Below, in pieces: positions 5,571 to 7,382 of a DNA stretch of 64,000 nt. The translations under genes were made by a program, and so were the position numbers. A model generated the notes under the pieces. That model did not search any database. It saw only the letters and a list, made by a program, of their open reading frames with translations, and was not told the DNA's origin. This DNA is from an uncultured virus (IMG/VR IMGVR_UViG_2627854101_000001) (taxonomy: Duplodnaviria; Heunggongvirae; Uroviricota; Caudoviricetes), in IMG/VR virus record IMGVR_UViG_2627854101_000001, positions 1-64,000 of that record. One strand, given 5' to 3'. Each line of letters begins with the position of its first letter. The first letter of the stretch is position 1.

Positions 5571-5807
5571 TTAATTGGATTTAATTTCGATTAATTCAAA
5601 AAGATCGTCAACTTTACAATTTAGAACATGTGCCATTAATAAAAGATTGTATGTACTAGGGAGGACGGTTGCAAATCCCTTGCTGTCATTTTTACACCAT
5701 CTAGATATACTTGCTCTTTCAGCTTTTATTTGCTCTGCTAACCAGCCTTTTTCGATACCTTTGCTGCTTAGAAATGAATCCAACTTACTTTTAACCCTAT
5801 ATTCCAT
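5571..5807 (-). CDS. XRE/Cro-like helix-turn-helix regulator, divergent from the tubulin operon
   Basis: KSKLDSFLSSKGIEKGWLAEQIKAERASISRW...LLMAHVLNCKVDDLF. Confidence 0.85.
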   Translation of the reverse strand: MEYRVKSKLDSFLSSKGIEKGWLAEQIKAERASISRWCKNDSKGFATVLPSTYNLLLMAHVLNCKVDDLFELIEIKSN

Positions 5808-5985
5808 TTAAATCATCCTTTTGCTGTTTGAATAAATTTTATAAAATGACTGGTTTACATACAAGCAGAGTATGATTATTTGCATTAAGATACAAAAATA
5901 TTTGCATTTAAATACAAATAAACAATATAATAATCGTATATCAACCAAGATACTTCAAAATCATCAGATATTAAGGAGGGGTTAC

Positions 5986-6270
5986 ATGGATACTTATTTT
6001 GATTCAGTCATTGATAATTTAACCCGAAATGATTTGTATATTCTAGGCTTATTGAGCGATGAAGGGGCAGATTTAAAGTTTAAATCAATTAGGAAGAAAA
6101 CCATTCAAGCAAAAACTCAGTTAACTGAAGCCACCTTTAGAAAGAGCATCGATCGTCTTGAGGCCTTGCAGTTTATTAATATAGTGAAAAATAGCAAAGA
6201 GCATACAGTTTTTATTACTCAATATGGACAAGAAGCTTTACGATATCAATTAGAAGGGGAGAGGGTTTAA
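5986..6270 (+). CDS. Winged-helix DNA-binding protein, candidate TubR-like adaptor
   Basis: 94 aa from ATG 5986 (aaggagg RBS); LTEATFRKSIDRLEALQFI...VFITQYG wHTH pattern; coupled to the tubulin gene. Confidence 0.7.
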   Translation: MDTYFDSVIDNLTRNDLYILGLLSDEGADLKFKSIRKKTIQAKTQLTEATFRKSIDRLEALQFINIVKNSKEHTVFITQYGQEALRYQLEGERV

Positions 6271-7382
6271 TGTTTGGATTTATTGGAGTTGGACAGGCCG
6301 GTGGAAGTGTAGCAGATGAAGCAATGAAGAGAGGATTTCATTCTGTCGCAATAAATTATTCACTTTCAGACCTTAATTCATTGGTCAATATCCAAGATAA
6401 GTTGCATTTGGTCGGAACAGAAGGAGTGGGGAAAGACAGAAGCATAGCAGCGAAACATATGAAAAACAACTGGGAATCTTCAATTGAGTTTATAAAGAAC
6501 ACAATGGAAAAGCCTTCAGTACAAGTCATATTTGTTGCTTTCTCTGCAGCTGGTGGAACCGGTTCAGGGGTAGCTCCTATATTATTAGAATTGTTAAACG
6601 AATACCTTGCTCATAAAACCATAGTTGCTGTTCCAATCCTTCCTGATAACAATGAGGTATTGGTTAATCAGATTAATTCGCTGGAGCTACTAGATGAATT
6701 ATCTCTGCCAGAGACCTGTGTTTTACCTTTGGATAATCAAATGGTTTTTCGCAAATATGAAGGGAAGATTTCAGAGAACAGACTCTACAAGGAAACAAAC
6801 AAAATGTTCCTGGATTTAATTGAAGTCTTACTCAATTACACGGACAGAGGATCAAAGATCAGTACATTAGACAGGAAGGATTTAAATCAGCTTTTTGATA
6901 CACCAGGAATCATGACTATTGCTCAAACAGACCTCAATGAATTTACAAATGAGGGTAAGTATTTTGATAAGCTGCATGAAGATATACAAAAGTCGTGGAA
7001 CAATTCGATTTTCACTCCTGTTGAGTTTGAAAATGTGATGAGAGCTGGAATTATCCTGGATGTTCATGAGTTCTTAACGGAGCATATATCGTATAATGAG
7101 CTGTTTAATGTCTTTGATAACAAGATGCCCCTAGACTTATTTAAAGGGCATTATGATAAAGGTAATAGGGCGATAACGATTCTTAGTGGATTAACCTGGA
7201 TCAATGAACGGATGAAGCAGTTAGATGATCTAATTGAAAATGGAAACACTGAAGTTAAAGAAACAACTGTTTATAAAGCGAAGAATCGCCGTAGAGAGGA
7301 TTTATTTAAACCGAAAAAACTGGAGAACAAGGAATCGAAAAAGACCTCGTATATGGAGGCACTGAAGAGACTAAAACGTTAA
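6270..7382 (+). CDS. Tubulin/FtsZ-family GTPase (TubZ/PhuZ-like)
   Basis: GVGQAGG (T1), AAGGTGSG (T4 signature), LDN, LDRKD (T7-like); short basic C-terminal tail. Confidence 0.92.
   Translation: MFGFIGVGQAGGSVADEAMKRGFHSVAINYSLSDLNSLVNIQDKLHLVGTEGVGKDRSIAAKHMKNNWESSIEFIKNTMEKPSVQVIFVAFSAAGGTGSGVAPILLELLNEYLAHKTIVAVPILPDNNEVLVNQINSLELLDELSLPETCVLPLDNQMVFRKYEGKISENRLYKETNKMFLDLIEVLLNYTDRGSKISTLDRKDLNQLFDTPGIMTIAQTDLNEFTNEGKYFDKLHEDIQKSWNNSIFTPVEFENVMRAGIILDVHEFLTEHISYNELFNVFDNKMPLDLFKGHYDKGNRAITILSGLTWINERMKQLDDLIENGNTEVKETTVYKAKNRRREDLFKPKKLENKESKKTSYMEALKRLKR

Follow-up and report, generated by a model that had tools for sequence, protein, structure and literature searches.

A probable type III (TubZRC-class) partition cassette in an integrating SPbeta-like Bacillus phage

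A tubR-tubZ operon with a divergent regulator

The window analysed here is a 64,000-nucleotide stretch, positions 1-64000 of IMG/VR record IMGVR_UViG_2627854101_000001 (an uncultured virus; 84,972 bp, classed as a provirus), and its segment 5571-7419 is best read as a self-contained type III (TubZRC-class) partition cassette that an integrating SPbeta-like phage carries as an accessory. Three open reading frames (ORFs) lie where a first-pass annotation, made from the sequence alone, had placed them: a gene for a 78-amino-acid (aa) Cro/C1-type (XRE) helix-turn-helix (HTH) regulator on the minus strand (5571-5807; PF13443 HTH_26, E 6.3e-6), a 94-aa winged-helix gene on the plus strand that we call tubR (5986-6270), encoding a putative centromere-binding adaptor, and a gene for a 370-aa tubulin/FtsZ-fold GTPase on the plus strand, tubZ (6270-7382). 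The 178 bp between the divergent genes (5808-5985) are a non-coding control region and hold two 22-bp direct repeats with 18-bp palindromes (5877-5918), a candidate operator or tubC. Downstream, a terminator-like hairpin followed by a T-run (7388-7419, plus strand) ends the tubR-tubZ operon. Homology to phages lacking the cassette sets its borders near 5590 and 7412, a size of 1.8 kb, and this homology picks up again at 7412, that is, at the operon terminator.

As in known TubZRC systems, tubR stands directly ahead of tubZ, and the translational coupling proposed in the first-pass annotation is borne out: the tubR stop codon TAA and the tubZ ATG overlap by one base (TTTAATG). The 94-aa start of tubR is marked by AAGGAGG, 6 nt ahead of the ATG at 5986, and a longer 132-aa reading of the small ORF (5872-6270) is for that reason probably wrong.

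The 94-aa protein had been labelled a winged helix, a correct description that can be made more exact. As a single sequence it matches TubR of the Priestia megaterium plasmid pBM400 (PDB 4ASN) with E 1.9e-17; sequence comparison shows that the 4ASN chain is the ORF upstream of the tubulin gene on pBM400. A family profile built from 58 relatives, out of 108 found in the full scan, retrieved 4ASN at 1.6e-33, a Clostridium botulinum TubR fragment (6TEY) at 2.7e-7 and the pBtoxis TubR (4ASO) at 0.57. The AlphaFold (AF2) model has a predicted local distance difference test score (pLDDT) of 93.1 and finds 4asn_A as its top Foldseek match, with template modelling (TM) scores of 0.88/0.92, a root-mean-square deviation of 0.9 A and 40% identity. 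Judged by sequence and predicted fold, the small protein is a true TubR. PADLOC returned only weak generic winged-HTH matches for it.

The 370-aa protein carries a tubulin/FtsZ GTPase domain (PF00091, E 9.3e-20; score 72.1 bits, cut-off 33), with GVGQAGG, the T1 loop, at residues 6-12 and the GGGTGSG-type box noted in the first-pass annotation present as AAGGTGSG at residues 93-100. G8, G95, G96, G98, G100 and D201 are invariant across homologues in an alignment of 45, D201 being identical in 45 of 45 sequences. The AF2 model (pLDDT 87.7, pTM 0.85) places D201 in the loop between the long core helix H169-191 and helix H202-209, one residue short of the latter, and by this position we take it to be the catalytic Asp of the T7 loop/H8 start of FtsZ and TubZ. 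Structure prediction had been proposed as a check against TubZ, PhuZ and FtsZ, and it places the model nearest to TubZ of phage c-st, which supplies the top two Foldseek matches (4xcq, E 1.1e-23, TMt 0.84). The B. cereus and B. thuringiensis TubZ proteins are within the top 10 and FtsZ appears only from rank 20; archaeal CetZ takes ranks 3-4, and the separation of TubZ from the FtsZ and tubulin folds in the model is accordingly not absolute. By sequence and modelled fold, the large protein is a true TubZ, and the TubZRC-like identity of the module held on each sequence and fold test that we ran.

Two other identities were considered for the GTPase and rejected. The NCBIfam equivalog TIGR00065 gives 27.8 bits against a cut-off of 295.2; with a score so far under the cut-off, the RefSeq name 'cell division protein FtsZ' is wrong, and public records mislabel the phage TubZ under it. 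The PhuZ family phrog_4733 matches more weakly (E 7.1e-9) than phrog_17961 (E 1.1e-13), an adaptor gene is present, and no PhuZ-named chain occurs among the Foldseek chains listed to rank 50 for the TubZ model.

Beyond its folded core (residues 1-327), TubZ ends in a predicted disordered tail, residues 328-370, encoded by 7251-7379 on the plus strand. Its pLDDT falls below 50 at residues 328-365 and 367-370, and it is basic, with 16 K+R versus 7 D+E; the last 45 residues are net positive in 40 of the 45 homologues, and the tip follows a conserved pattern, S-x-x-D/E-I/L-L-x-K-Y/L-x-R/K. In c-st TubZ, the TubR-tubC complex binds to the C-terminal tail (PMC5322520), and by analogy the tail described here is a putative dock for TubR-DNA.

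These features bear on one of the roles raised in the first-pass annotation, interference with host FtsZ, in which a phage tubulin would disturb FtsZ, division or cell shape in the lysogen. The tubulin/FtsZ fold speaks for such a role, as does the SPbeta-like phage phi3T, described as altering host cell shape via unknown genes (PMC12361552); phi3T is without the TubR-TubZ cassette. Given the distance of the protein from FtsZ, its TubZ-type tail, the conservation and coupling of a cognate TubR adaptor, and the lack of any PADLOC defence-system match for TubZ, we disfavour this option and consider it very improbable.

Carrier phage, distribution and selection

The carrier is, on sequence grounds, an SPbeta-like Bacillus phage. 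The first 20 kb of the window share 81-88% DNA identity with SPR, SPbeta-type and phi3T-type phages and match the circular B. velezensis record plaBV1 (122,487 bp) at 93.8%. The SPbeta-like context that we looked for consists of a YonO-type RNA polymerase, HU, YonP, arbitrium and a large serine recombinase in SPbeta-like order; ORF 2175-4949 (minus strand) is a YonO-type RNA polymerase (phrog_8308, E 4.8e-172; Pfam RdRP PF05183, E 1e-9), and arbitrium and recombinase are found via the near-identical plaBV1. The annotation of plaBV1 includes AimR/AimP, YopX, YorP, replication and structural genes and the recombinase, and plaBV1 is therefore a whole phage. The source record is colinear with it from ~102.5 kb through the plaBV1 record origin to 63.3 kb, ending at the last gene that precedes the recombinase gene, so that the source record represents one phage arm only. 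CheckV assigns a completeness of 98%, yet the record is without the ~39-kb plaBV1 arm that carries recombinase, structural and lysis genes.

Using the YonV-like backbone gene (9179-10396) as an anchor, we collected 38 SPbeta-like IMG/VR loci, of which 12 carry the HTH gene, tubR and tubZ, 25 carry none of them and 1 retains a tubZ remnant. The remnant, in a cassette-free SPbeta-like locus (L052:1269-1457; L numbers are our locus handles), is a 64-aa stretch 61% identical to TubZ and a possible scar of cassette loss. Unrelated small genes fill the cassette site in other SPbeta-like phages; the cassette is an accessory at a variable site, not a backbone gene. The HTH gene accompanies tubR-tubZ in each of the 12 carriers, and the other 26 loci give no match to it at E<=1e-5. 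It occupies the position that yonR has in SPbeta, but as a YonR orthologue it was rejected, with no SPbeta-type phage match at E<=0.01, and it is a positional analogue only. A divergent Cro/C1 HTH gene also lies beside tubR in 6 of the 15 candidates tested from other lineages, making it a frequent, non-obligatory tubR partner.

More widely, an IMG/VR scan with TubZ yielded 24 loci at 93-98% identity, and an alignment-based scan extended this to 80 TubZ loci with identities as low as 25%, many of them on 100-180-kb contigs. Pairing with TubR was counted in 58 of the 80 (L106-L163): these diverse loci contain a TubR-family ORF in 54 cases, and in 51 it immediately precedes tubZ. Several SPbeta-like species clusters retain the pair, at 53-98% identity, as do other large phages. 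TubZ and TubR are absent from all SPbeta-type phages in GenBank, and literature searches found no description of either in SPbeta-like phages; in a survey of 55 SPbeta-like prophages, neither 'FtsZ' nor 'tubulin' occurs in the main text, and its supplementary tables may list the gene (10.1101/2021.11.22.469490).

Purifying selection on the cassette genes is strong. Of 25 close loci, 23 have an intact, colinear tubZ, 22 such a tubR and 22 such an HTH gene; the three that fall short for tubR and the HTH gene have another allele, and tubZ is broken in two loci (L026, L028). Over 16-21 alleles from these loci, the mean ratio of nonsynonymous to synonymous substitution rates (dN/dS) is 0.059 (tubZ), 0.062 (tubR) and 0.106 (HTH gene); the proportion of synonymous differences (pS) is ~0.2 for tubZ and tubR. 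That the cassette is an inert passenger, a plasmid remnant gained by recombination with no role in the phage, would fit its variable cargo site, the two disrupted tubZ copies and the 64-aa remnant; a dN/dS of ~0.06 at this level of synonymous divergence, and the retention of the pair across SPbeta-like species clusters and other large phages, make this explanation close to negligible.

The first-pass annotation had taken the phage to be of a normally integrating type, and the state of the carriers agrees: among 15 carrier records checked, 13 are classed as provirus, 1 as linear and 1 has direct terminal repeats. Six of the 15 have a large serine recombinase domain at their very end. One locus preserves a junction (L073:4493-7933, record G003), in which the recombinase is followed by the C-terminal part of spoVK (positions 137-261 of 261) and then hflX, and two other carrier records end in a pbuX fragment. 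Both spoVK and pbuX are listed as SPbeta-like prophage integration loci (10.1101/2021.11.22.469490). By analogy with SPbeta in spsM, a prophage in spoVK implies an excision during sporulation that would restore the gene. Protein clusters of the TubZ clade are also found on contigs of 1.6-4.9 Mb.

Circular carriers exist as well. Three records listed in PLSDB as circular plasmids are whole SPbeta-like phages, and two of these have the cassette: B. velezensis plaBV1 (TubZ 96.5%) and a B. pumilus plasmid (124,561 bp, 52.7%). A further cassette (TubZ 96% identical) comes from a 133-kb contig in a 9.1-Mb assembly titled Streptomyces sp. (L006), where a 91% identical recombinase is found on another short contig and contamination with Bacillus or phage DNA is probable. 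We set this locus aside as uninformative about a free phage because the assembly is fragmented and the recombinase homologue sits on a separate short contig.

Four public RNA libraries were examined as assembled contigs. In library X1 one contig covers 5247-9213; contigs of this library reach 190 kb, and DNA is likely present. Library X14 contains contigs over 5247-6078 at depth 23 and over 6570-9213 at depth 81, the latter also spanning SR6/yonT, with yonO at 5-7. The phages in libraries X6 and X10 are without the cassette.

Control region, allele exchange and proposed role

Because 5808-5985 is the sole non-coding DNA of the cassette, it is the only possible site for a cassette-borne tubC and for promoters. 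The first palindrome (5879-5896) reads TTTGCATTAAGATACAAA, and the second (5901-5918) occurs in perfect form, TTTGCATTTAAATGCAAA, in many relatives; TRF reports a period of 22, 1.9 copies, 90% match and a score of 70 for the direct repeats. In a comparison of 23 sequences, variable positions number 0 of 18 and 2 of 18 in the palindromes and 23 of 142 elsewhere in the region. The best -10-like words ahead of tubR are TATAAT at 5926-5931, seen by eye, and the -10 element of TTTAAA-16-AATAAT at 5907-5934, from a promoter scan. The second palindrome sits just upstream of them, and a protein occupying it would be likely to repress the operon. Upstream of the palindromes, 5850-5855 forms what we take to be a CATACA-type -10 word, a sporulation-linked motif.

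A word AGATA/AAGATA upstream of tubR recurs by eye in the window, in allele B (described below), in the B. pumilus type and in pBM400. As a shared iteron it was rejected: in 36 non-redundant loci the 5-mer was observed 31 times versus 15 expected (p 2e-4 uncorrected, 451 words tested), with AT-rich words ranked above it, and a 6-mer one-mismatch test against dinucleotide shuffles was saturated, 83 of 200 shuffles matching the observed top score.

Four loci (L020, L028, L030/L047) carry a different allele, B, in which TubZ is kept at 93% identity, TubR is 54% identical and the HTH regulator, exchanged together with tubR, 42%. The palindrome at the same place differs, reading TTGTAATCATTAATGATTACAA. 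The allele junction falls inside tubR, 12 codons ahead of the stop, with high similarity from there on; both alleles end TubR with the same 12 residues, EALRYQLEGERV. Swapping the DNA-reading part and its sites while keeping the motor is what would be expected from partition incompatibility between co-resident replicons. Repressor-operator immunity gives the same pattern, so the swap does not identify the reader of the palindromes. TubZ stays the same while TubR, operator and regulator differ, a ready-made experiment in partition specificity.

The first-pass annotation had offered segregation of an extrachromosomal form and positioning of replicating DNA as further roles, and we favour both. 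In our preferred reading, which we would call an even bet, the cassette acts in the stable inheritance or positioning of an episomal form of the phage, a facultative phage-plasmid phase. This reading rests on the plasmid ancestry of the genes (the nearest relatives of TubZ are partition genes of P. megaterium pBM400-type plasmids, at 41%), the autonomous operon, the two circular whole-phage records and the specificity swap. An integrated prophage is inherited with the chromosome, so the cassette would be of use only during a free-circle state of the phage. Such a circle, of ~125 kb, could arise after infection before integration, in hosts without a free attB, or upon excision. The divergent XRE regulator and the palindromes would determine when the operon is on. 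If the proteins behave as their families do, TubR would coat repeats in the 178-bp region upstream of its own gene and thereby repress the operon; TubZ, with its intact nucleotide-binding G-box, putative H8-start Asp and predicted disordered basic tail, and made from a coupled gene pair with its own terminator, would form treadmilling filaments with GTP; and the tail tip would grip the TubR-DNA complex, so that DNA is dragged along the cell.

Several observations weigh against episomal inheritance. Described tubC sites lie upstream of tubR and consist of several direct repeats, in blocks of ~130 to >350 bp (PMC6009700). Two palindromes in 178 bp fit this poorly and could equally be XRE operators, making tubC here a candidate only and not a finding; the conservation contrast of the palindromes is modest and counts only mildly (2 of 36 variable positions versus 23 of 142), and no iteron shared across tubR-tubZ lineages was found. 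The third SPbeta-like 'plasmid' record, B. subtilis SH1 (118 kb), is without the cassette, which is thus not linked to the plasmid state: it is present in 2 of 3 plasmid records and in 12 of 38 provirus loci, numbers too few to separate. plaBV1 keeps its recombinase gene, and its circle may be an excised, replicating phage, not a maintained episome. The AlpAC precedent in prophage CGP3, the single cytoskeletal adaptor-motor pair yet studied in an integrated prophage, would by analogy point to a service in replication after induction, not in inheritance.

That precedent leads to the main alternative, a lytic-phase organiser, in which TubR-TubZ filaments would, following induction or infection, carry replicating circles to a favourable site or anchor them there, much as AlpA-AlpC does in CGP3 or PhuZ in jumbo phages, and raise the efficiency of replication or packaging, inheritance being irrelevant. 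AlpA-AlpC shares the adaptor-then-motor order, its adaptor binds repeats upstream of its own operon, and the system is induced early on excision, with a two-fold drop in copy number in its absence (PMC4446434). The cassette is co-oriented with the early genes, its carriers are mostly ordinary integrated prophages, and it lies beside the presumed pac region, given as the stretch between yonR and yonP (10.1101/2021.11.22.469490). However, the closest relatives of the genes are plasmid partition genes, and the operon, with a control region, a regulator and a terminator to itself, is not within an early transcript. The exchange of adaptor and operator is more easily explained by cross-talk of co-resident replicons, and all laboratory-propagated SPbeta-type phages manage without the cassette. 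We regard a lytic-phase organiser as possible, at appreciably less than an even chance.

A variant of the episomal reading concerns sporulation. In a cell entering sporulation with a non-integrated or newly excised phage genome, pole-directed TubZ filaments might push a TubR-bound copy into the forespore, letting the phage ride the spore without integration. This would account for the fact that every named host among the TubZ clade matches is in an endospore-forming genus of Bacillota, and also for SPbeta-like integration into sporulation genes such as spoVK, which the phages vacate in the mother cell; it predicts expression during sporulation. We consider such a spore-entry device unlikely.

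To the left of the cassette, a yonP-like gene occupies 5272-5451. The genome-opening or pac point of SPbeta relatives is given as lying between yonR and yonP (10.1101/2021.11.22.469490), and by analogy the pac stretch of this phage would be 5452-5570, directly left of the cassette. Between the yonP-like and HTH genes, two 32-nt direct repeats (5467-5498 and 5533-5564, reported as 66 bp apart) flank a hairpin at 5502-5518, and an inverted copy, 96% complementary, lies at 8299-8321; of this, 8301-8321 is matched by short RNA-library contig pieces from phages without the cassette.

To the right, 7412-8330 is ~900 bp of non-coding DNA with no ORF >50 aa; ~7412-7997 and the sequence from ~8303 are conserved (72-80% identity) among SPbeta-like phages whether or not they carry the cassette. 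The stretch 7412-8330 had no Rfam match at E<=1 and no DnaA-box cluster, and could be an RNA or a replication or regulatory region. Beyond it, an ORF at 8337-8555 (plus strand) encodes a hydrophobic stretch and a very basic tail, and its 3' end is overlapped by an SR6 antitoxin RNA at 8490-8587 (minus strand; Rfam RF02892, 88.7 bits, E 1.1e-15). Judged from these matches, 8337-8587, which begins ~1 kb downstream of tubZ, is a type I toxin-antitoxin pair of the yonT/SR6 kind; such a pair is also present in phages without the cassette. The YonV-like gene (9179-10396) encodes a 405-aa P-loop protein with a weak DEAD match and a strong one to phrog_2467 (E 4e-97). Its full-length relatives, at ~30% identity, are found on 23 plasmid records of Acinetobacter (mostly 37-68 kb for the full-length ones) and on Macrococcoides plasmids of 10-12 kb, which suggests a replicon-associated function.

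Two of these neighbours bear on a further alternative, that TubZ and TubR start or sustain theta replication of the excised circle in the manner of RepX. RepX/TubZ of the B. cereus-group plasmids pXO1 and pBtoxis is reportedly needed for replication, the depositors of PDB 4ei7 name the B. cereus homologue 'Plasmid replication protein RepX', and the cassette lies upstream of the conserved ~900-bp non-coding stretch and of a P-loop protein also found on small plasmids. On the other side, the phage has helicase, primase-like and polymerase genes of its own, two thirds of SPbeta-like loci replicate without the cassette, the window contains 15 DnaA-box matches versus 22 expected and no cluster of them, and similarity to RepX is low (E 2.9e-6). 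A replication factor of this kind is quite improbable.

Returning to inheritance of an episomal form, tubulin-based type III partition has so far been studied on plasmids and one plasmid-prophage. Here it is a common, selectively kept accessory of a well-known integrating phage family, in which a chromosome-borne prophage should not need partition. If the cassette acts on the free circle, SPbeta-like phages would have a facultative episomal phase, whether as a phage-plasmid, as a carrier state before integration or by spore carriage; this phase would have been overlooked since the laboratory phages are without the cassette. The hosts B. subtilis and B. velezensis are genetically easy, making the question directly testable.

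Comparison with known systems

The closest characterised relative is TubR-TubZ of pBM400, with 40% identity in TubR and 41% in TubZ over 86% of its length. It shares the order tubR then tubZ, with overlapping or abutting genes. pBM400, however, is a 54-kb plasmid, compared with an integrating phage of ~125 kb here; its non-coding DNA before tubR measures 641 bp versus 178 bp, and, unlike the cassette, it has no divergent XRE gene beside tubR.

TubZRC(Y) of the Clostridium botulinum phage c-st is the only phage-borne type III system that has been studied. Its TubZ is the best fold match for the cassette TubZ, at 26% sequence identity, and its TubR is related to the cassette TubR through the family profile (6TEY, 2.7e-7). 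c-st is maintained as a plasmid prophage, whereas the carriers of the cassette are mostly integrated. Its tubC exceeds 350 bp and contains two kinds of iteron (PMC6009700). TubY is present in c-st; here there is no ORF of at least 100 aa between tubZ and the YonV-like gene.

pBtoxis TubZRC and pXO1-type RepX/TubZ share the fold and the operon logic, with Foldseek E ~1e-21 to 2xka and 4ei7, but are distant, RepX matching at E 2.9e-6 by sequence and pBtoxis TubR at E 0.57 by family profile. The tubC of these plasmids is made of several direct 12-bp repeats. It spans ~130 bp (PMC6009700).

PhuZ of jumbo Pseudomonas phages is a phage tubulin with a weak family match to the cassette protein (phrog_4733, E 7.1e-9). 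It is not known to need a TubR-type adaptor, and its host phages are strictly lytic jumbo phages.

AlpA-AlpC of CGP3 from Corynebacterium glutamicum is, like the cassette, an adaptor-then-motor operon in a chromosomally integrated prophage. AlpA binds repeats located ahead of its operon and connects the circular phage DNA with filaments, and the role shown for AlpAC is efficient replication after induction (PMC4446434). The AlpC motor is actin-like, not tubulin-like, and the proteins are non-homologous to TubR-TubZ.

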